24,000 nucleotides of DNA. Source: Coleofasciculus sp. G1-WW12-02. GTDB taxonomy: Bacteria; Cyanobacteriota; Cyanobacteriia; Cyanobacteriales; Coleofasciculaceae. The notes under the pieces are model-generated. The model was not told the DNA's origin and did not search any database. It saw only the letters and a list, made by a program, of their open reading frames with translations. Position 1 is the first letter of the stretch; the number at the start of each line of letters is the position of its first letter. The stretch lies in the NCBI GenBank assembly GCA_040219735.1, contig JAVJRX010000129.1; one strand, written 5' to 3'. The position numbers and the translations under genes are program-made. Below are positions 4,020 to 18,716 of the stretch, one piece after another.

Positions 4020-6152
4020 TTAAAATGGGTTAATCGTTATCGAAAAATATACGCCATTTTCTTGCCAGGTATTATCCTCGGACTCAACAGAAATTAAGGG
4101 AATCCCCCAGTCTAAGCGAGCGGTGATGCGATCGCCTTGTTGCCATTGTAGTCCCAACCCCAGAGCCGCCAAACTGCTCGGGTTAGGAGCGTCTATCTCG
4201 CCGTTATTCCAGGTTGTGCCAACATCCACAAAGGGAGTCACCTGTAAAACACCATCCCACTCAGGAATGCGTAAAATGGGCAGCCGCACCTCGGCTGAAG
4301 CAAAGGCGCCATTATCAGTGAGTCGAATATCTTGGCGATAGCCGCGTACACTCCCTTGACCCCCTAAACCATACTGCTCCACAGGTAACAAGTCTTGAGC
4401 GGCTAGTTGAATGTCACCGCGAAGCACCAGTAATGTATCTGGGGCTAAAAGTCTTACCCACTGGGTTTGACCCCGCCAGGAAAAGAAGTGACTATCAGGC
4501 GCATCATCGTTGACTGTGGCATTAAAGACACCCAGACCTACATTAAACTGAGAGCGTAGGGCAAAGACTTCCCTCGCCCCTCGTTTAGTCCACTCTTGAA
4601 AGAATCGCAGGGCTGAAACTCGGATGCGCCCATCCTCATCAGCACCCAATGAAGGAAAACCAACTTCTTCTCCTATTAAGTCTTCTAAGAAAACGGTTTT
4701 TGTATTGCGTCGAGAGGCGGTTAAACCCACTGCGAATTCCTGGGTTGGTGTTTCCAGGAGGGGTTGACGAAATGTGAGGTCAAAACTGGTTGAGTCGGAT
4801 TGGATATCAAGAAAGTTAAATGGATCTTCAATAATCTCGCTGGAGGTGTTGCTAAAGCTAAAGCTAACCGTGCCATTACGCGGATTCACGGGTAGGGCGT
4901 AGTTAAATTCAATCTCATCGCTACCATCGGTATTGGTATAGCTGAGGGTTACGCCATCGCCGAATCCGAGTAAGTTGGCTTGAGTTATGGAAGCCCCGCG
5001 CCGGAAGCTACCCACACTGGGGGAACGCCCATTGTTGGCAACGAGTTGGTAACTCCAGGTGTTGGCTTCGATAATATCGACGATGAGTAAACTGGTACCG
5101 GGTCCAGAACCGGTCGAGAGTTCAGCCGAGATATTTTCGATGAGGGGATCGAGCTGCAAAAGACGTAGGGATTCGAGTAAATGCGGTACATTGAGGGGTT
5201 TGGGATTAGCGACAGCAATACGCGATCGCACGTAGTTGGGACGCAGGCGGCGAAGTCCATTCACCTGAATCTCTTCGATTCCGCCTTCGACAATTTCAAT
5301 AGTGACGGTATCCTGGTTTAGGGATTGAGGTGGAATGAAGGCACCGGATGTAGCATAGCCGTTGTTTACGTATAACTGGGTGATGGCAGTTCTGGCATTT
5401 AAGAGTTCAGCAAAGGTAATCGGGCGATTAGTAAACTCAGCTATCTCTTCGGCTAACTGTTCATCACTAAATGCTGTATTGCCGATAAATTCAAAATTTT
5501 TCACCGTAATTTGGTCTTGAGTGACACCCTCTGGCGTCTCCGGCGTTGTCGGTGTTAATTGAGGGGATTCTAGAAGCTGTTCTGGGGGGGGTAATGTAGG
5601 AGACGGTGTGGCTTCTGGCAGCCTAGAGGGAGGCGGTGGCTCAATGTCTTGAGGCGGAGGCAGTTCAGGAATTGAGGGACTCTCTCGAGGAGTCGTGCGA
5701 TCAGGAATTTGAGTGACGTAGAGGGGCAAGTGTTGAGTGTTGAGTGTTGAGATATGCCATGGCGCGTCTTTCGGGGCGGGTTTCATGAGTCTCGTTTCTT
5801 CCTTTACCCCGATGTGACTAAACCCGCCCCGACTGAGTTTTGAATGGGTGATCTCATGTCCGTCTAAACGGTTACCATTGTCTTCTACCTTCCCTTGTAC
5901 CCTGTGCCCTGTGCCCTCTGCCTTCGTGGAGCCTTCTGTCTTTTCTTCCTCAATTGTTCTCGATAAATAGTTTAGGTGTTCAGGGTGAGGTAAGACTGGA
6001 GACAAGGACGTCTTGATTGAGGCTTTAGCGTTTGTGGAGATAGGCAGATTTTGAGCGTTTACCGAGGGAGTTAGCCATAACACCGCTGACAATGTTGCTA
6101 TAGAGGTGAATAGAATTTGCCCGTTGGACTCTACACCAATCATATTGTTCAT
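4020..6152 (-). CDS. ShlB/FhaC/HecB-family (TpsB) outer-membrane hemolysin-activation/secretion protein with POTRA domain
   Basis: 710-aa ORF. It has a signal-peptide-like N-terminus (..LSAVLWLTPSVNA/Q), a Pro-rich linker and a POTRA_2-like segment (ITVKNFEFIGNTAFSDEQL...IEIVEGGIEEIQV). A long beta-barrel region follows and ends in a terminal aromatic residue (..ITINPF). Confidence 0.85.
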   Translation of the reverse strand: MNNMIGVESNGQILFTSIATLSAVLWLTPSVNAQNLPISTNAKASIKTSLSPVLPHPEHLNYLSRTIEEEKTEGSTKAEGTGHRVQGKVEDNGNRLDGHEITHSKLSRGGFSHIGVKEETRLMKPAPKDAPWHISTLNTQHLPLYVTQIPDRTTPRESPSIPELPPPQDIEPPPPSRLPEATPSPTLPPPEQLLESPQLTPTTPETPEGVTQDQITVKNFEFIGNTAFSDEQLAEEIAEFTNRPITFAELLNARTAITQLYVNNGYATSGAFIPPQSLNQDTVTIEIVEGGIEEIQVNGLRRLRPNYVRSRIAVANPKPLNVPHLLESLRLLQLDPLIENISAELSTGSGPGTSLLIVDIIEANTWSYQLVANNGRSPSVGSFRRGASITQANLLGFGDGVTLSYTNTDGSDEIEFNYALPVNPRNGTVSFSFSNTSSEIIEDPFNFLDIQSDSTSFDLTFRQPLLETPTQEFAVGLTASRRNTKTVFLEDLIGEEVGFPSLGADEDGRIRVSALRFFQEWTKRGAREVFALRSQFNVGLGVFNATVNDDAPDSHFFSWRGQTQWVRLLAPDTLLVLRGDIQLAAQDLLPVEQYGLGGQGSVRGYRQDIRLTDNGAFASAEVRLPILRIPEWDGVLQVTPFVDVGTTWNNGEIDAPNPSSLAALGLGLQWQQGDRITARLDWGIPLISVESEDNTWQENGVYFSITINPF
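5773..5830. repeat. 58-bp MITE-like inverted-repeat element (GGGGCGGGTTT...AAACCCGCCCC) lying inside the TpsB coding sequence
   Basis: The 11-nt termini are perfect reverse complements. Related copies lie at 10514-10570 and 18762-18819, sharing an internal ..cc(c/a)gatg(t/g)(g/a)actAAACCCGCCC(C).. arm. This copy is flanked by a gccatggc-centred palindrome (about 5749-5770) and a (GTGTTGA)x3 heptamer run (5729-5751). Confidence 0.8.
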
Positions 6153-11625: not shown

Positions 11626-14600
11626 TTACTGTTTTACATCATCACACAGAAACTTATCGCTATCTGGGGCGCTGTGCTTCAAATAATCCCCAACCCAATC
11701 ACAGGCTCTATGCATGAGTGCATCTAGCGTTAAATCCTCTAAATTCCACAGCTTCACTGTTTTATCCCCACTAGCAGAAGCAATCGTCTTTCCATCTGGG
11801 CTGAACACTACGCTATAGACTGCTTCTTCATGACCAGAAAGACTGTGGAGAAGTTCACCTTCTCGATTCCACAACCTGACTGTTTTATCATTACTAGCAG
11901 AAGCAATGGTGTTTCCATCTGGGCTGAACACTACCCTCCCGACTGTTTCTTCATGACCAGAAAGAATGTGGAGAAGTTCACCTTCTCGATTCCACAACCT
12001 GACTGTTGTATCTGTACTAGCAGAAGCAATCGTCTTTCCATCTGGGTTGAACACTACCCTCCAGACTGTTTCTTCATGACCAGAAAGAATGTGGAGAAGT
12101 TCACCTTCTCGATTCCACAACCTGACTGTTCCATCCCCACTAGCAGAAGCAATCGTCTTTCCATCTGGGCTGAACACTACACTGATGACTGTTTCTTCAT
12201 GACCAGAAAGAGTGTGGAGAAGTTCACCTTCTCGATTCCACAACCTGACTGTTTTATCCCAACTAGCAGAAGCAATCGTCTTTCCATCTGGGCTGAACAC
12301 TACCCTTATGATTGATGCTTCATGACCAGAAAGAATGTGGAGAAGTTCACCTTCTCGATTCCACAACCTGACTGTTTTATCCCCACTAGCAGAAGCAATC
12401 GTCTTTCCATCTGGGCTGAACACTACGCTCCAGACCTCGTCTTCATGACCAGAAAGAATGTGGAGAAGTTCACCTTCTCGATTCCACAACCTGACTGTTT
12501 TATCAGAACTAGCAGAAGCAATCGTCTTTCCATCTGGGCTGAACAATACGCTATTGACCCATGCTTCATGACCAGAAAGACTGTGGAGAAGTTCACCTTC
12601 TCGATTCCACAACCTGAGTGTTTTATCCCTACTAGCAGAAGCAATCGTGTTTCCATCTGGGCTAAACACTACGCTACTGACCAATTCTTCATGACCAGAA
12701 AGGGTGTGGAGAAGTTCACCTTGTTGATTCCACAACCTGACTGTTTTATCCCCACTAGCAGAAGCAATCGTCTTTCCATCTGGGCTGAACACTACGCTCC
12801 AGACTGATGCTTCATGACCAGAAAGGGTGTGGAGAAGTTCACCTTTTCGATTCCACAACCTGACTGTTTTATCCCAACTAGCAGAAGCAATCGTCTTTCC
12901 ATCTGGGCTGAACACTACCCTCCAGACTGTTTCTTCATGACCAGAAAGACTGTGGAGAAGTTCACCGGCTCGATTCCACAACCTGACTGTATCCCCACTA
13001 GCAGAAGCAATCGTATTTCCGTCTGGGCTAAACACTACCCTCCAGACTGGTTCTTCATGACCAGAAAGAGTGTGGAGAAGTTCACCTTCTCGATTCCACA
13101 ACCTGACTGTATTATCCCAACTAGCAGAAGCAATCGTCTTTCCATCGGGGCTGAACACTACGCTATTGACTGGTTCTTCATGACCAGAAAGACTGTGGAG
13201 AAGTTCACCTTCTCGATTCCACAACCTGACTGTTTTATCACCACTAGCAGAAGCAATCGTCTTTCCATCTGGGCTGAACACTACCCTCCAGACTGTTTCT
13301 TCATGACCAGAAAGGGTGTGGAGAAGTTCACCTTCTCGATTCCACAACCTGACTGTTTTATCACCACTAGCAGAAGCAATCGTCTTTCCATCTGGGCTGA
13401 ACACTACGCTAATGACTCGTTCTTCATGACCAGAAAGAATGTGGAGAAGTTCACCTTCTCGATTCCACAACCTGACTGTTTTATCATAACTAGCAGAAGC
13501 AATCGTGTTTCCATCTGGGCTGAACACTACGCTATAGACCAAATCTTCATGACCAGAAAGGGTGTGGAGAAGTTCACCTTTTCGATTCCACAACCTGACT
13601 GTTTTATCCCCACTAGCAGAAGCAATCGTCTTGCCATCTGGGCTGAACACTACGCTATAGACTGGTTCTTCATGACCAGTTAATCGATTCCGCTCTCTAA
13701 CGCTGTCGTCATAAATTACCGTCTGCAAGGTTTGATTAATTCGCCGCTTAATCTCCAATTTTTCTGAATTTGATTCTTTGAATAGCTCTCCTGCCCGAAT
13801 CCCTTCAATCAGAGCATCTAATTTCAGATTTGACTTAACCAATATCTGGGAAAAGCGGCTTAACGCATCAATTTGACCTGCCATCCTTTTTTCTGATTCC
13901 CGCCACTGGACTACCGCCAAGCTTGTTAAACCCATCAACCCAATCAAAGCAGTAACCGATACAACTATAATTCGGCGAGCTTGTTTAAGTTCTCGTTTAC
14001 GGCGACTTTCTTCTTGATGCAAATGAGTCTCTTTCGCCGCTATACTTGCTTCAATAAATGCGTTTTGCAAGTCGGTGGCTGAAGGCTTTTTCCGGCTTTG
14101 ATTCGTTTCCTGTAACCAGTCTTGAGCAATTGCTAATTCATTTCCCCGCAACAACAAATCATCACTTTTATCCTTCTGCTGCCACTCCAGCGCTCGCTGT
14201 GACCATTTGCTATGCAGGCGAACGTGTTCTCTATCCGTATCTAAAGCCCTGACCAATTGATTGAAATTGGCATTAAACTCCCGTTGATTCTGATTGAAAT
14301 CAATCCACTGGATCTGGGCTAACTCTGGATGTAAATTTGCCGAGTCTACGGGTTGATGTAATACGGTGATAAAACGCTTATTTAAACTGGCTGCATAGTC
14401 CACCTCAGCAGCACAGTACGGTGAATTAACCGAACGCGGTGAAAGAATAAACAAAAAGTTATCACAGGCTTTAATCCCTAACTGAATCTCCTGCTGAAAG
14501 TCACTCCCCGATGCAATACTTTCCTGGTCAAACCATGTCGTTTTTCCTTGCATCTGTAATGCATCATTTAGCTTTCTCGCCAAGTCTGAGTCAGCACGGG

Positions 14601-15930
14601 AATAAGAGATAAACACATCCAGCGACTCTAACGGCGGTTGTCGCAGGCTTTCAGTAATGAATTCTTCTTGTAAGGCGGTGGGTGGATGGTGTGTCCTTTT
14701 TTGTGCTACCTTTAACCACGCTTCAGCACTGCGTAAGTTATAGCCTCGTAGCAGAATACTAGGATTTTGGTATTGCTCTTTCCACTTCAGCGCTTTGGTC
14801 AGTAAAATCTTATGCTCTCGATAATAAGCCTCATCCTGATGTAGAATCCGTAATAACTGACTTTCATCAAGCCGATAATCCTCTTCCTTTACATTATCGG
14901 TGAGGTCAATATATTGTAATCCCTGTAGCGCGGGTGGGATTTGTTCCACTGGTGTTTCCCGTACCAGTACCGGAATAATCCGCTTGTGCAGTGATACCGC
15001 TAAGTCTAATTCTTGTTGACAGTAGGTTGAGTTTACGGAGTCGGGTGAAAGGAGATACACTAAGTTATCCGCCTGTTCAATTCCCCGTCTAATCGCGTCC
15101 TCAAAGGATTCTCCACTTTGAATATCTGTTGTATTTGTCCAAACGGTAATGCTTTCTCGCCTTAAACTGCGACGAATCTTTTCCATCGTCGCCTTATCTA
15201 CATCGCTGTAGGCAAGAACCACCTGAGTCATCAAGTTATTGGCATTTTTGATACTTTCGGTGATGTATTCGCAATGTAAGTCCGTAGGAAGACAAGGCGG
15301 TTGTTCATCTTTAAACCGTACCTTTAACCAAGCTTCTGCCTGTTGTCTCTCTGCGCCAACTAATAGCCAACGATGTTGCTTTTGATTCCTCTCCCATTCC
15401 AATGCTTTGGCTAGAAAACGGGTATGTTGTTCTACATAGTCGGAATGAGAACGGAGTAATTTTACTAAGTCAGCTAAGGATGCTTCAAAATTGTTTACCC
15501 CCTCCTGAAAATACACCCAGTTGAGTTTACGGATTGTTGGGTGCATGTTTTGATAGCTTTCATGTAACCCCTTTGCTTTATAAGCTTCCCACTCTGACTG
15601 AGTACCATTAGGATTACGCTGCTGCCAGGTTTCCTGGCTAATTCCCATAACGTGTAATATAGGAATAATCCGTTTATTCAGTTTAATCGCCAGTTCAATT
15701 TCTTTTAGGCAATAGGGAGAGTTGACGGAATGAGGAGAAATGATAAATAGGAAATGACTAGCTTTTTCGATGCCATCGTCAATTTGATTCTGGAAGTCTA
15801 CGGCTAGGGGAATATCATTGAAGTCAAACCAGACGTTAAACTTTTGTGCAGTTAGACGGGATTGCAGGGTTTGAGCGAAAGCTTTACTATCGGCTCGTCC
15901 GTAAGAGATAAAGGCATCAAAAATTGTCAT
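11626..15930 (-). CDS. Triple TIR-domain / single-TM / 16x WD40-repeat protein (1434 aa)
   Basis: Three TIR-like modules lie at about aa 3-140, 235-345 and 437-546. They carry the motifs DAFISYGRADS and DVFISYSRADS, plus SP.SVNS.YC..E with Glu77, Glu307 and Glu509. Each module is followed by a helical ALEW..LLRG..L..AE.WL linker. A hydrophobic helix spans aa 653-676 (nt 13903-13974). Sixteen repeats of the form LSGHE..V..VVFSPDG.TIASAS.DKTVRLWNREGELLH. run from aa 750. I saw no P-loop. Confidence 0.9.
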   Translation of the reverse strand: MTIFDAFISYGRADSKAFAQTLQSRLTAQKFNVWFDFNDIPLAVDFQNQIDDGIEKASHFLFIISPHSVNSPYCLKEIELAIKLNKRIIPILHVMGISQETWQQRNPNGTQSEWEAYKAKGLHESYQNMHPTIRKLNWVYFQEGVNNFEASLADLVKLLRSHSDYVEQHTRFLAKALEWERNQKQHRWLLVGAERQQAEAWLKVRFKDEQPPCLPTDLHCEYITESIKNANNLMTQVVLAYSDVDKATMEKIRRSLRRESITVWTNTTDIQSGESFEDAIRRGIEQADNLVYLLSPDSVNSTYCQQELDLAVSLHKRIIPVLVRETPVEQIPPALQGLQYIDLTDNVKEEDYRLDESQLLRILHQDEAYYREHKILLTKALKWKEQYQNPSILLRGYNLRSAEAWLKVAQKRTHHPPTALQEEFITESLRQPPLESLDVFISYSRADSDLARKLNDALQMQGKTTWFDQESIASGSDFQQEIQLGIKACDNFLFILSPRSVNSPYCAAEVDYAASLNKRFITVLHQPVDSANLHPELAQIQWIDFNQNQREFNANFNQLVRALDTDREHVRLHSKWSQRALEWQQKDKSDDLLLRGNELAIAQDWLQETNQSRKKPSATDLQNAFIEASIAAKETHLHQEESRRKRELKQARRIIVVSVTALIGLMGLTSLAVVQWRESEKRMAGQIDALSRFSQILVKSNLKLDALIEGIRAGELFKESNSEKLEIKRRINQTLQTVIYDDSVRERNRLTGHEEPVYSVVFSPDGKTIASASGDKTVRLWNRKGELLHTLSGHEDLVYSVVFSPDGNTIASASYDKTVRLWNREGELLHILSGHEERVISVVFSPDGKTIASASGDKTVRLWNREGELLHTLSGHEETVWRVVFSPDGKTIASASGDKTVRLWNREGELLHSLSGHEEPVNSVVFSPDGKTIASASWDNTVRLWNREGELLHTLSGHEEPVWRVVFSPDGNTIASASGDTVRLWNRAGELLHSLSGHEETVWRVVFSPDGKTIASASWDKTVRLWNRKGELLHTLSGHEASVWSVVFSPDGKTIASASGDKTVRLWNQQGELLHTLSGHEELVSSVVFSPDGNTIASASRDKTLRLWNREGELLHSLSGHEAWVNSVLFSPDGKTIASASSDKTVRLWNREGELLHILSGHEDEVWSVVFSPDGKTIASASGDKTVRLWNREGELLHILSGHEASIIRVVFSPDGKTIASASWDKTVRLWNREGELLHTLSGHEETVISVVFSPDGKTIASASGDGTVRLWNREGELLHILSGHEETVWRVVFNPDGKTIASASTDTTVRLWNREGELLHILSGHEETVGRVVFSPDGNTIASASNDKTVRLWNREGELLHSLSGHEEAVYSVVFSPDGKTIASASGDKTVKLWNLEDLTLDALMHRACDWVGDYLKHSAPDSDKFLCDDVKQ
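11743..13683 (-). repeat. Tandem array of 16 x 123-bp (41-codon) WD40-coding units, highly similar at DNA level
   Basis: The block catgaccagaaag..tgtggagaagttcacc..tcgattccacaacctgactgt..actagcagaagcaatcgt.tttccatctgggctgaacactac recurs with a 123-bp period. The plus-strand antisense ORFs restart at 11830, 12322 and 12814, which is 4 x 123 apart. One unit carries a 3-bp deletion (GDTV instead of GDKTV, at 12988-12993). Confidence 0.95.
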
Positions 15931-16322
15931 TTTCTGGTATCTGTCCCTAGCTAAACGTCAGGAATACAGCTTTGAATGTGGAGTATGTCACCGTTGTCGT
16001 AGCGTGACACACCGAATTGGGTGGAGGACGAACGAAAGCAATACCTTGATGCTAACCCCACCCTAACCCTCCCCTTTATAAGGGGAGGGAACCGGAAAGG
16101 AGCATTTCCCCCCAAAGCACCGGGGGGATTAAGGGGGGTTATTTTTAAGGCAACGAGATTCAAAGGCTCACTTAGTTTGCGTTTCCTCTTAAGTTGACAC
16201 GGGTGACAGACGTGCGCCCTTTTACCGCACAGACGTGCGTCCAAAACCGTAAAATCCATCCCATCATTTTAGCTGTGCCACGGCAGTAGTGGACTGACAC
16301 AGCTACAATCGTAGAATAGGTT

Positions 16323-16387
16323 GTAGGTTGGGTTTCGACTTCGCTCAACCCAACGAACTCTAGGGCTAAGGTTCCTTACTACAAGCC
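16323..16387 (+). repeat. Composite dispersed repeat (GTAGGTTGGGTT..AACCCAAC hairpin plus GGGCTAAGGTTCCTTACTACAAGCC), copy upstream of the TIR-WD40 gene
   Basis: It has the same modules and orientation as 11092-11152 and 10021-10169. Like the 11070 copy, it is preceded by cattttagctgtgcca (about 16265-16282). Confidence 0.75.
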
Positions 16388-16528
16388 GGAGCGATCGCAC
16401 ATGCCTAACCTGTAAGAACATTTTGTGCAAAAATTTAGGTTGAATGGTACTAAGTTAAGGCTGGTGGGCAATGCCCACCCTACGGTATATCAAGAGTTTC
16501 GGCGATTAAAAAATGCAAGTTTTCAGTG

Positions 16529-16611
16529 CCATTTAATTTAAAGTGAGTAGCGAGCAAGATGCTCGCACTACGAGAATTTTGCCACTATTGACAATAACAA
16601 TTAATTGAATG
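16529..16611. repeat. Second copy (inverted orientation) of the ~80-bp CATTTAA-terminated MITE-like element
   Basis: It shares the tagcgagcaagatgctcgca hairpin core and the termini with 6368-6447. Confidence 0.7.
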
Positions 16612-16837
16612 TTTTCTTCCCCATCTCCCAGACGCTTCAAAAGCGCGTCTCTACACCCCTTAACCGAACCGTATTGAGACAGTTGCCAAATCGCCACCCG
16701 TCTCTCCCGAATCCCGCGCTCTAGCCGCGAAAATTAATCAACCTCTTTGCAAGCGGCGATAAATCCCTAGAATTGGAGTGGCTTGCATTTTAGCAAAGAC
16801 AATTATACTTAGCAATCAAGGGAGGTTGAGAACCGAT

Positions 16838-17824
16838 ATGGATATTGTTGCGGTTATTGAAAAGGGCGGAATCGCCATGTGGCCCCTGTTAGGGCTTTCG
16901 ATCCTAGCAGTTGGTACAATTTTTGAGCGACTCTGGTTTTGGGCGGGAATCCTCTTGAAACAAGAGGAAATCGTCAATCGGGTGCTGGATGCAGGCGCTC
17001 AAAACTGGCAGGTGGCTAGAGAAATCGCGATGAAATCGCGGCGACAACCCGTGGGACGATATTTATATGCTCCCCTACGCCTGATCAGCCCAGAACCTGA
17101 ATTATTCCGCTTAGCTTTAGAAGGGGCGGCTGATGACGAGTTAGCGGCGATGCGGCGCGGCGATAAGCTATTAGAAGCGGTGATTGCGCTGTCTCCTCTG
17201 TTGGGATTACTGGGAACGGTACTCGGTTTAATCAACTCATTAGGCTCAATTACCATTGATCAACTAGGTACAGCCTCCACCGCTGGGGTAACGTTGGGAA
17301 TCGGCGAAGCGCTGATTAGTACCGCGACAGGACTGATTATTGCAATTACCAGTTTGGCATTTTATCGACTGTTTCAAGCCTTTTGGTTTAACCAAGTCAA
17401 AATTTTCCGTAAAGCGGGGACAGAGTTGGAATTACTGTATCGCCAAGATTGGTTACAAGCCGAAGATAGTGATCAAGTGATGAGCGATACCCTCCAAGAC
17501 CATACCATTAACGTTTACCAAGAGAGTTTTGAAGTACCCCAACCCCCCACTTCACTTCCCAAACCCCGATCCAAGCAGAAGCAGCCGCCAAAGCAGGATG
17601 ATCAGGTTTTACCGGCACAAAGCGATCGCACTCCCGTCGCCAATGCTAAAACAAACCAAGACGAACAGCTTTCCCCAGACAATCCTCAAGTCCCCTCAAG
17701 CGATCGCACTCCCGTCGCCAATGCTAAAACAAACCAAGACGATCCGCTTTCCCCAGACAATCCTCAACTCCCCCAAAGCGATCGCACTCCTGTCTCCAAC
17801 CCTCAAGGAAACCCAGAAAATTAG
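16838..17824 (+). CDS. exbB: MotA/TolQ/ExbB-family proton-channel protein with a ~110-aa repetitive C-terminal tail
   Basis: The core is typical of the family: [35 protein letters not shown]..., [15 protein letters not shown] and [18 protein letters not shown] prefer the ATG at 16838, which has a GGGAGG 11 nt upstream, over the track's GTG at 16778. It is followed by an ExbD gene. Confidence 0.85.
17621..17824 (+). repeat. 78-bp (26-codon) tandem repeat, about 2.6 copies, inside the exbB 3' region
   Basis: Units start at 17621, 17699 and 17777 and encode [14 protein letters not shown](E/D)(Q/P)LSPDNPQ(V/L)P(S/Q). Each unit begins with a HIP1 site (aGCGATCGCact). The first two units are nearly identical at DNA level. 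Confidence 0.9.
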
Positions 17825-17963
17825 AAGTCTTTTCCTTAGTTTTCCCGATATCCTTAGTGCTGCTTGGCTTCAAATTGCCACCCGTTAATGTATAGACAAA
17901 AAAGCAGACATCCTAAACAAGTGCAGCCCTGGAGCCTTCTTTGACCTTTTGGAACCCAAGACG

Positions 17964-18716
17964 ATGACAACACTACCCCAGCACCGGACGAAAAAAAAAC
18001 CTGCCGCTTCCTTCCCCACACTAACCCGCCCTTTAAACTTGCGGATGGATTCCCCAACTGAAGAAGTTCGGATTGAGATCGTACCGCTAATTGATGTTAT
18101 TTTCTGTATCCTGACCTTCTTTATCCTGGCAGCCGTGGGTCTATCGCGCCAACAAGCCATTAATGTTGATTTACCCAAGGCGAGTACCGGAACTGCCCAA
18201 GGACGGCAGATTCTGATGATTAGTTTGGATGAATTGGGGCAAGTGTATGTAGAAAAAAATCCGGTGATTACCCAAGAGCAGTTTATTCAACAACTCCAAG
18301 CTTACAAGCAACAAAACCCCAGTGGCGTATTTGTCCTCTACGCCTCGCCCAATGCCATGTATAACGAAGTTGTACAAGTCTTGGATTTACTTCGGGAAGT
18401 CGGGGGCGATCGCGTGGCGCTAGCCAATTCACCTGGACAATCGCCGCAAATTCCGGGGACGAATCCCCTTTCTCCCTCAACTGGAGTTCCCGAATTTAAC
18501 CCCAATCCTGGACAAATACCAGTTAATCCTGATGGCACATTTAATCCCAATTTTCCGCCTCAATTTCCGGGGGTTCCGGGTCAACCTCAATTTGGATCAC
18601 CCCCGACGAATCCCGGTACGTTACCACCTTCTCCTGGACAATTCCCCATCAACCCCGGTGGTTCTGTTCCACCCAATTTTGGCACACCGACGTCACCGCA
18701 GCCGCAAGGGGAATAA
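17964..18716 (+). CDS. exbD: ExbD/TolR-family biopolymer transport protein with a 95-aa Pro/Gly/Asn/Gln-rich C-terminal tail
   Basis: The core ..EEVRIEIVPLIDVIFCILTFFILAAV...INVDLPKA... and a periplasmic domain ending ..GGDRVALAN are typical of cyanobacterial ExbD. The ATG at 17964 is preferred, though the track's TTG at 17949 is possible. The tail spans 18429-18713. Confidence 0.85.
   Translation: MTTLPQHRTKKKPAASFPTLTRPLNLRMDSPTEEVRIEIVPLIDVIFCILTFFILAAVGLSRQQAINVDLPKASTGTAQGRQILMISLDELGQVYVEKNPVITQEQFIQQLQAYKQQNPSGVFVLYASPNAMYNEVVQVLDLLREVGGDRVALANSPGQSPQIPGTNPLSPSTGVPEFNPNPGQIPVNPDGTFNPNFPPQFPGVPGQPQFGSPPTNPGTLPPSPGQFPINPGGSVPPNFGTPTSPQPQGE

Follow-up and report, generated by a model that had tools for sequence, protein, structure and literature searches.

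Predicted outside-in TIR receptors with exchangeable external sensors in cyanobacteria: comparative analysis of a triple-TIR, WD40-bearing protein from Coleofasciculus

The described systems closest to the protein analysed here are Thoeris, among bacteria, and the Toll-like receptors (TLRs) and interleukin-1 receptor (IL-1R). Thoeris systems (types I–XI, including type VII, which pairs TIR with SLATT) pass a signal to an effector, and their TIR protein ThsB is small, soluble and cytoplasmic with one TIR domain. TLRs and IL-1R combine a repeat-built external sensor, one transmembrane (TM) helix and cytoplasmic TIR domains. To our knowledge, the bacterial TIR immune proteins characterised so far all sense infection inside the cytoplasm. 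The window analysed here, a stretch of 24 kb (24,000 nucleotides) from the metagenome-assembled genome (MAG) of Coleofasciculus sp. G1-WW12-02, lies on a 31-kb contig and encodes a 1434-aa protein with three TIR domains, one predicted TM helix and 16 WD40 repeats. This protein is identical to NCBI MEQ8755971.1 / WP_446337872.1, which is labelled only 'TIR domain-containing protein'. Comparison with its relatives places it in a large family of cyanobacterial proteins, rich in paralogs, that are predicted to be outside-in TIR receptors; their external sensors are exchangeable, and their genes are often linked to SLOG, patatin or SLATT genes. The protein is already in the databases under generic annotation; TIR-based immune signalling itself is known, and this gene family is a variant of it.

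A preliminary description of the window, made from its letters, had reported a single open reading frame (ORF) of 1434 codons at 11626–15930. The frame is present at these positions, with the strand corrected to minus, and the features of the gene are as follows.

11626..15930, minus strand: complete coding sequence, 1434 aa plus stop, with an ATG start and a reading frame intact over 4.3 kb
15451..15924, minus strand: TIR domain 1 (aa 3–160), from Pfam TIR_2 (E 4.9e-24, aa 7–94), unit alignment and AlphaFold2 (AF2) model
15235..15444, minus strand: helical module 1 (aa 163–232), from unit alignment and AF2 model
14839..15228, minus strand: TIR domain 2 (aa 235–364), from Pfam TIR_2 (E 8.9e-28, aa 237–351)
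14635..14832, minus strand: helical module 2 (aa 367–432), from unit alignment and AF2 model
14239..14622, minus strand: TIR domain 3 (aa 437–564), from Pfam TIR_2 (E 3.9e-31, aa 439–560)
13972..14232, minus strand: helical module 3 with a long juxtamembrane helix that terminates in basic cluster SRRKRELKQARR (aa 567–653)
13909..13971, minus strand: predicted TM helix (aa 654–674), the only one in the protein, from hydropathy, conservation and charge bias
13687..13902, minus strand: three-helix stalk between membrane and propellers (aa 677–748), conserved in the family and also found in the caspase protein L090 described below
11719..13683, minus strand: 16 WD40 repeats of 41 aa each (aa 750–1404), from Pfam WD40 and Tandem Repeats Finder
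11629..11718, minus strand: C-terminal helical cap with the conserved cysteine pair C1410/C1429, from the model, orthologues and L090

Alignment of the TIR domains and what follows them to one another showed that the head is built of three units, each comprising a TIR domain and a helical module of ~70 aa; TIR1 alone carries an insertion of ~28 aa (aa ~97–125). Pfam scans of each segment on its own gave the TIR_2 E-values listed above, so the three TIR domains that had been proposed from their motifs held at profile significance. The first helical module has the motif H..L...ALEW......LL.G..L..AE.WL....P..L...FI.ES, of which H..L...AL.W......LL.G..L..A..WL....P..L...FI..S is common to the three units, and it matched no Pfam family. 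An AF2 model of aa 1–700, built from a 49-sequence alignment (mean predicted local distance difference test, pLDDT, 85.5; predicted template-modelling score, pTM, 0.77), consists of three alpha/beta TIR folds with helical bundles in between, and a long helix (620–664) runs via the basic cluster SRRKRELKQARR into the hydrophobic segment. Foldseek comparison of the TIR parts of the model with solved TIR domains gave target-normalised TM-scores up to 0.88, with matches that include Hydra TRR-2, SARM1, RPP1, SPARTA TIR-APAZ, AbTir, MyD88 and TLR1/2/6/10. The TIR fold is thus recognised both by profile and by structure.

Each TIR domain carries an S..S.(Y)C..E motif with Glu at the catalytic position, namely Glu77 (codon 15700–15702), Glu307 (15010–15012) and Glu509 (14404–14406), as the preliminary description had placed them. 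Conservation of these residues was high among 174 aligned three-unit relatives: Glu77 was kept in all 174, Glu307 in 155 and Glu509 in 162, the exceptions at the latter two being Gln for the most part. HMMER aligned E509 with the motif Glu of Cat1, a CRISPR-associated TIR protein; by motif spacing rather than HMMER alignment, we take E77, E307 and E509 to be the counterparts of SARM1 E642 and the plant catalytic Glu. The TIR domains with catalytic Glu are also matched by Pfam ThsB_TIR and, with E-values as low as 4e-22, by the ThsB models of PADLOC, a first likeness to Thoeris. By their residues the domains look catalytic and of NADase type and, since all three keep the enzymatic Glu, they are probably enzymes rather than scaffolds.

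The absence of a Walker A motif, on which the preliminary description had relied, needs rewording, because the [GA]xxxxGK[ST] pattern is present once, as ALQMQGKT at aa 457. This sole occurrence lies within TIR3 and a Pfam scan of aa 1–740 detected no NTPase family at E ≤ 1, and the broader statement that there is no NTPase module therefore stands. The chance Walker-A-like string overlaps a stretch peculiar to the third TIR domain, GKTxWFDQES (aa 462–471), in which all positions but aa 464 are invariant in 49 aligned relatives. This stretch starts in 14539–14568 (aa 455–464), extends slightly past it and is situated at the expected beta-B strand and BB loop.

A single hydrophobic stretch preceded by an Arg/Lys cluster had been noted at nt 13903–13974, which is correct for aa 653–676; its strongest segment, and the best hydrophobic 21-mer, is aa 654–674, IIVVSVTALIGLMGLTSLAVV. 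These 21 uncharged residues have a Kyte–Doolittle 19-mer mean of 2.26 and a summed biological-scale (Hessa) insertion value of about −1.2 kcal/mol, with the second-best 21-mer of the whole protein at +13 on the Hessa scale. The architectures of 269 retrieved proteins were tallied with home-made hidden Markov models (HMMs) and a hydropathy scan. A hydrophobic helix was found 10–20 residues past the last TIR unit in 228 of them (~85 %), whatever comes next. In the 15 residues flanking the helix, the TIR side has on average 5.27 Lys plus Arg against 2.74 beyond the helix, and the N-terminal flank is the richer in 201 of the 228. Cysteines make up 1.0 % of the TIR-side part; past the helix their median number is two, and this pair sits in the conserved C-terminal cap, the rest being Cys-free; in the studied protein C1410 and C1429 are the only cysteines in the ~760 aa past the helix.

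The domain beyond the helix is not constant in the family, WD40 being the commonest. In some relatives the WD40 array is replaced by CHASE2 (Pfam E 6e-57, 2.5e-66 and 3.7e-53), behind which lie two or three more TM helices, and in others by dCache_1, behind which a single further TM helix leads into a short basic tail. Both CHASE2 and Cache are known as sensor domains of the extracytoplasmic space that are bracketed by TM helices; because they occupy exactly the position of the WD40 array, the array is predicted to lie outside the cytoplasmic membrane. In agreement with this, the NAD+ needed by the TIR domains is a cytoplasmic metabolite. Other post-TM parts comprise FGE-sulfatase with or without WG repeats, TPR, WD40 with 9–13 TM helices behind it, and unassigned domains. 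In four variants (P0171, P0215 and P0216, WD40-like; P0188, unassigned) the external region is followed by a block of 8–12 more TM helices without a Pfam match.

A further argument came from a scan of metagenome contigs with a stalk alignment of five sequences, which yielded six loci. Four of these are triple-TIR family genes and a fifth, L091, is an N-terminally truncated fragment with TM helix, stalk and WD40. The sixth, L090:3613-8016 (metagenome contig JAESGJ010000099.1), encodes a 1468-aa protein in which a Peptidase_C14 caspase domain and an nSTAND1 domain (E 3.6e-103) are followed by a basic cluster, TM helix, stalk, WD40 array and Cys-pair cap; its stalk is 45 % identical to that of the studied protein. 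On this comparison the TM–stalk–WD40–cap segment is a portable cassette. The NTPase of L090 must be cytoplasmic, which is an independent argument for the same orientation of the cassette. L090 also indicates that STAND proteins with a predicted external WD40 sensor exist beside the TIR family. Equivalence of the helical module of the TIR head with the juxtamembrane region after nSTAND1 in L090 was considered and rejected, as the module family HMM gave E > 1.

Taken together, the hydrophobicity of the segment, the charge bias (201 of 228), the CHASE2 and dCache swaps, the conserved position of the helix, the cysteine pattern and the L090 cassette support the placement of the TIR domains inside and the WD40 repeats outside, as had been supposed from the positive-inside rule. 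An N-in/C-out topology, with cytoplasmic TIR domains and with stalk and propellers in the periplasm or cell envelope, is considered probable on this comparative evidence. If instead the hydrophobic helix were buried or peripheral, the whole protein would be a cytoplasmic TIR–WD40 sensor resembling a STAND protein that lacks its NTPase. Blades 58 % identical to those of the array do occur in the STAND ATPase protein Npun_R6612, and the pLDDT of 44–57 that AF2 assigns to the hydrophobic segment is uninformative in either direction. However, the favourable insertion score over 21 uncharged residues, with nothing close to it elsewhere in the protein, the retention of the helix in ~85 % of relatives with a strong and consistent charge asymmetry, and the exchange of the downstream domain for CHASE2 or dCache flanked by more TM helices make a wholly cytoplasmic protein very unlikely.

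With the N-in topology as the preferred reading, the protein follows the logic of TLRs and IL-1R, in which an external sensor made of repeats is joined by a single TM helix to TIR domains in the cytoplasm; the TIR fold is homologous. The polarity is reversed, however, with N-terminal TIR domains in a type II arrangement, WD40 takes the place of leucine-rich repeats (LRRs), and there are three TIR domains rather than a single C-terminal one. Of the TLR-like, N-in logic proposed in the preliminary description, the general order of sensor, TM helix and TIR is therefore retained, but the LRR, type I and single C-terminal TIR architecture of TLRs is absent, and the resemblance is analogous, not orthologous. 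The same overall plan, in which one TM helix joins a cytoplasmic catalytic or output domain at the N-terminus to an external C-terminal part that consists of repeats or binds a ligand, is found in PknB-type Ser/Thr kinases and in ToxR/CadC; their output is a kinase or a DNA-binding domain instead of a TIR array, and there is no sequence relationship. Thoeris differs in its ThsB, a small soluble sensor as described above, where the family has three to eight TIR domains tethered to a TM helix and a predicted external sensor of ~750 aa.

Membership of the STAND, NLR or Avs classes, already doubted on first inspection, was rejected: the repeat sensor is present (16 WD40) but the central P-loop NTPase is not, and the Pfam scan in which the studied protein gave no NTPase contrasts with the nSTAND1 match of L090. 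The two proteins have the basic cluster and TM helix, stalk, WD40 array and Cys-pair cap in common, and differ in the head, which is Peptidase_C14 plus an nSTAND1 P-loop NTPase in L090 and a series of TIR plus helical module units without NTPase in the family. Because the same cassette sits behind a caspase–nSTAND1 head, the missing NTPase is a genuine architectural distinction. Another cyanobacterial conflict protein, the WRAP array Npun_R6612 of Nostoc punctiforme (2YMU), resembles the studied protein in its recently amplified, near-identical blades of 41–42 aa. It has 14 blades, forming two 7-bladed propellers behind a STAND ATPase, as against 16 blades behind a TM helix, and its blades are near-completely identical, whereas variation in the studied array is concentrated at three top-face codons.

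The count of 16 WD40 repeats given in the preliminary description agrees with 16 Pfam WD40 stretches in near-identical 41-aa units. Tandem Repeats Finder detected a period of 123 nt with 15.8 copies and 91 % matches at 11743–13679, and repeat-to-repeat DNA identity was 85–96 % (mean 91 %). The sole length irregularity of the array is in repeat 6 (region 13007–13069), which has 40 aa and is one codon short after 'SGD' (SGD-TVRLWN). A model of aa 640–1434 (pLDDT 82.5) contains the three-helix stalk, 64 beta-strands corresponding to 16 blades, and the C-terminal helical cap. The top PDB match of the array was 2YMU (58 % identity, E 8e-49); with the mean nucleotide identity and the 64-strand model, this match identifies the array as a recently amplified WD40 propeller. 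The 8-bladed ODA16 superposed as a rigid body on about half of the array (368 columns, root-mean-square deviation 3.6 Å), and this fit suggests that the modelled array forms two 8-bladed propellers.

Variation among the repeats was strongly concentrated. Across 15 repeats, 33 of the 41 codons were nearly invariant, with one or two codons each, codons 6, 10, 27, 35 and 41 showed moderate variation, and codons 7, 9 and 25 each had seven or eight different codons. Non-synonymous diversity was 0.61 at codons 7, 9 and 25 compared with 0.018 at the 33 conserved codons. Variable positions 6–9 fall in the d–a loop and the start of strand a, and positions 25–27 in the b–c turn near the conserved Asp, which is mostly the top face of the propeller, the usual ligand-binding surface of WD40 domains. 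These positions correspond to the 'R1-2, R1, D-1' hotspots reportedly described for WD40 proteins by Wu et al. 2012. Homogenised repeats with a few hypervariable surface residues are also known in fungal HET-E-type NLRs. This pattern fits what would be expected of a receptor for variable protein ligands.

When aa 1–740 were used as query, 1302 of the scored candidates reached E ≤ 1e-5. The matches listed are all cyanobacterial, and filamentous genera predominate among them (Coleofasciculus, Symploca, Scytonema, Rivularia, Calothrix, Microcoleus, Caldora and Anabaena). A HMMER scan with aa 565–748 found 1329 representatives of 50 %-identity clusters, in which the helical module occurs 1 to 7 times per protein, and at least 587 encoding stretches turned up when each species was represented by one genome; more than one paralog is present in several of these genomes, and the stretches listed are again all cyanobacterial. 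The commonest architecture, three units with one TM helix and WD40, accounted for 112 of the 269 tallied proteins, and forms with 1, 2 and 4–8 units also occur. Tandem paralogs were seen as three in a row in Microcoleus sp. D2_18a_B4 (L032:376-13519) and as two each in L050:5571-14065 and L020:4737-10735, which suggests local amplification of receptor genes. The size and paralog richness of the family, with variation concentrated on the propeller top face, support receptor-like evolution.

SLOG, SLATT and patatin are sensor or executioner modules of nucleotide-signalling defence systems; Burroughs and colleagues reportedly defined SLOG, LSDAT and SLATT (NAR, 2015). All ORFs within 10 kb of 83 loci were clustered, and effector genes were tallied over 80 family loci. 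The only widely recurrent neighbours were an LSDAT_prok protein of ~245 aa (SLOG; E down to 5e-69) and a Patatin protein of ~380 aa (E 4.5e-26), with two-TM proteins of the DUF4231/SLATT_3 type forming a third recurrent set. At least one of these lay within 10 kb of the TIR gene in 31 of the 80 loci (~40 %): LSDAT in 20, patatin in 16 and DUF4231/SLATT in 15. LSDAT and patatin were found together in 12 loci, and in at least 11 (L001, L020, L025, L026, L040, L041, L044, L051, L053, L067 and L068) both precede the TIR gene on its own strand, LSDAT first and patatin second. In Scytonema sp. NUACC21 (L001:5893-11792) the three genes are separated by only 20 and 189 nt, and the LSDAT–patatin–TIR operon is a candidate for a complete signalling pathway. 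One locus, L080, has an LSDAT–SLATT fusion. The SLATT neighbours (L059:14247-15803, L060, L065:14277-15821, L066:8904-10169, L043:6262-7353 and L080:8351-9700) are 360–520 aa long with long C-terminal extensions, one of which has a weak chitinase-class-I match.

This linkage is the second likeness to Thoeris, in that the TIR genes of many relatives adjoin SLOG-, SLATT- or phospholipase-type genes with the same signal-to-effector logic; the SLOG of the family loci differs in being of the LSDAT type and in residing on a protein separate from patatin. Type VII Thoeris is a validated system of TIR+SLATT operons with cyclic ADP-ribose as its messenger (preprint 10.64898/2025.12.03.692087), and LSDAT is the SLOG family whose eukaryotic member TRPM2 binds ADP-ribose through its MHR1/2 domain (PMC13143021). 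Since ~40 % of related loci link the TIR gene to LSDAT-SLOG, patatin or SLATT, it is more likely, by analogy, that the TIR domains are signal generators as in Thoeris than merely terminal depleters of NAD+. On a 9.2-Mb cyanobacterial contig, genes for DUF5682, DUF4262, NADAR (NAD/ADP-ribose metabolism) and VWA_CoxE proteins (L003:10931-16826) lie downstream of another family member; this neighbourhood may be a second kind of link to ADP-ribose biology.

From these comparisons we propose that the protein is an NTPase-free, outside-in, Thoeris-like immune receptor, and the whole chain, from bitopic receptor through NAD+ cleavage to cell death or arrest, has in our estimate somewhat better than an even chance of being correct. 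On fairly strong comparative evidence, the protein would be a bitopic inner-membrane receptor with TIR domains inside and propellers outside. Its propeller top faces, given their variability, would bind a variable ligand of the periplasm or envelope, probably a protein of an invader or of damaged neighbour cells. Oligomerisation driven by the ligand is the most likely trigger, since a lone TM helix transmits a conformational change poorly, and it would allow the tethered TIR arrays to reach the TIR–TIR contacts needed by active NADases. Ligand-driven dimerisation is an established mode of activation for PknB-type kinases, and TIR NADases need TIR–TIR assembly for activity; we infer activation by clustering from these single-pass receptors and from this need. 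The TIR domains, with their conserved catalytic residues, would then cleave NAD+. As the gene linkage of relatives suggests, an NAD+-derived messenger would be read by an LSDAT-type SLOG and passed to a patatin phospholipase or a SLATT pore, with destruction of the membrane. In the genome studied, the effector may be encoded elsewhere, or loss of NAD+ may itself be the output. The nature of the effectors suggests that the affected cell would die or arrest as a population-level defence.

Several observations weigh against this proposal. WD40 blades alone are no sign of export, and the blade type is not diagnostic of it, because the closest solved array, 2YMU, belongs to a presumably cytoplasmic STAND ATPase protein. 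Nei–Gojobori dN/dS between repeats was ~1.0 overall, with 1.35 at codons 7, 9 and 25 and 0.45 at the other 33, synonymous counts being unreliable at multi-hit codons; positive selection on the repeats was dropped as a formal claim, and the concentrated variation alone stands. Genes neighbouring the receptor gene in the window are annotated as housekeeping or carry no assigned function, and they do not form a defence island. No LSDAT, patatin or SLATT gene was detected in the 24 kb (tblastn E > 0.09), nor was a conserved partner gene found in the window, and ~60 % of related loci likewise have no linked effector. In this the locus departs from Thoeris, whose signal-binding effector shares an operon with the TIR gene. 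Finally, in orthologues ~90 % identical from other Coleofasciculus MAGs, everything from the head through TM helix and stalk to the C-terminal cap is kept except the number of WD40 repeats, which is only 2, 7 or 8; as the source is also a MAG, the repeat number of 16 may be either evolutionarily labile or assembly-dependent.

The most sceptical form of this last point takes the long ORF for a chimera of the assembly, or for a gene in decay, and its 16 repeats for an artefact of joining near-identical units from short reads; the 31-kb MAG contig and the repeat numbers of 2, 7, 8 or 16 among orthologues speak for it. It is nonetheless highly improbable, since the 4.3-kb frame is intact, hundreds of relatives, including ones in complete chromosomes, have head, TM helix, stalk and cap in the same linear order, and the repeats differ at ~9 % of bases, which is sufficient to resolve them. 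The gene itself is not in doubt, only the copy number of its repeats.

The missing effector gene bears on the output of the receptor. With topology and sensor logic unchanged, the TIR domains, at least in solo copies, could be terminal effectors that deplete NAD+ in abortive infection, with neither messenger nor partner. This would explain a window without an effector gene and the ~60 % of related loci without LSDAT, patatin or SLATT nearby, and many bacterial TIR proteins are NAD+ depleters (preprint 10.64898/2025.12.03.692087). However, relatives ~70 % identical over the whole TIR head occur in LSDAT–patatin operons, and because the heads are this similar the enzymatic output is probably the same as in those operon relatives. 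Unlinked LSDAT–SLATT pairs also exist in Coleofasciculus: in Coleofasciculus sp. S288 such a pair neighbours cobalt-transport genes, and no TIR gene is present on the side that the contig shows, its sequence stopping at the SLATT gene. For solo receptors, effectors may therefore act in trans. Depletion alone is on balance rather unlikely, and the reading with a messenger is retained.

A receptor of this kind need not be anti-phage. It could serve developmental, kin-recognition or damage signalling in filaments, for instance by sensing molecules in the periplasm, which reportedly runs on from cell to cell along a filament. The restriction of the listed matches to cyanobacteria, mostly of filamentous genera, and the position of the gene outside a defence island are in keeping with such a role, as is the observation, attributed to Paoletti et al. 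in 2007, that hypervariable WD40 arrays reportedly mark fungal allorecognition NLRs. By contrast, the linked SLOG, patatin and SLATT proteins are typical cell-killing effector modules of defence systems, and an arms race fits both the paralog expansion and the top-face hypervariability, so that a non-immune function is judged unlikely.

Extending the immune reading to the family as a whole gives a more tentative picture, which we regard as possible although the balance tips somewhat against it. Filamentous cyanobacteria would possess a germline-encoded, outside-in repertoire analogous to TLRs, in which the periplasm is surveyed by propellers of hypervariable sequence, or by the CHASE2, Cache or FGS sensors that take their place, and TIR arrays tethered to them through one TM helix generate a messenger derived from ADP-ribose (ADPR), without an NTPase switch. 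Shared LSDAT-SLOG/patatin or SLATT executioners, some acting in trans, would respond to it, giving many sensors and few effectors. Plant sensor TIR-NLRs, which converge on helper modules, offer a comparison for this arrangement.

If the proposal is correct, this would be the first case in bacteria of TIR signalling that starts outside the cytoplasmic membrane, and an independently arisen mechanistic parallel to TLR/IL-1R logic, and it would imply that receptor clustering alone can gate TIR domains, without a STAND NTPase, SAVED or Argonaute partner. The recurrent LSDAT–patatin and LSDAT–SLATT linkage supplies a concrete, testable pathway and suggests a ligand class for prokaryotic LSDAT domains, from which the ADPR-binding domain of TRPM channels descends. 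A family of more than 1300 clusters at 50 % identity and at least 587 stretches is an accessible experimental target. No description of the multi-TIR–TM–sensor family or of its LSDAT–patatin linkage was found in the literature searched, which covered two eLife surveys of conflict systems in multicellular bacteria, a PNAS paper on sensors diversified by diversity-generating retroelements, a TIR divergence survey, a 2025 Thoeris survey and WD40 surveys; Burroughs et al. 2015 (NAR) and Dunin-Horkawicz et al. 2014 (JMB), outside that scope, may show related architectures. The 2025 Thoeris survey explicitly left out standalone TIR proteins.

The window as a whole matched no Rfam family, and its synteny is shared solely with the Coleofasciculus orthologue, the genes in other genera having unrelated neighbours. 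Besides the receptor gene it encodes DUF1232, cupin, DUF554, DUF2470, MBL-fold, inorganic pyrophosphatase, ShlB/POTRA, rhodanese, NYN, LeuA, ExbB/ExbD, aspartase/fumarase-class lyase and DUF362 proteins. The gap of ~850 nt upstream of the gene (15931–16777) yielded no LSDAT or patatin remnants by tblastn and holds a 102-aa ORF (15951–16259) without a Pfam match, which is no convincing gene. The ShlB/FhaC-type transporter (4020–6152; POTRA plus Omp85, two-partner secretion) has a Pro-rich N-terminal region of ~200 aa, with no obvious TpsA-type cargo gene adjoining it in the window. The ExbB-like protein (16778–17824) has a C-terminal extension of three tandem units of ~30 aa with (E/D)…SPDNPQ, and the ExbD-like protein (17949–18716) ends in a long Pro/Gly/Gln-rich tail.

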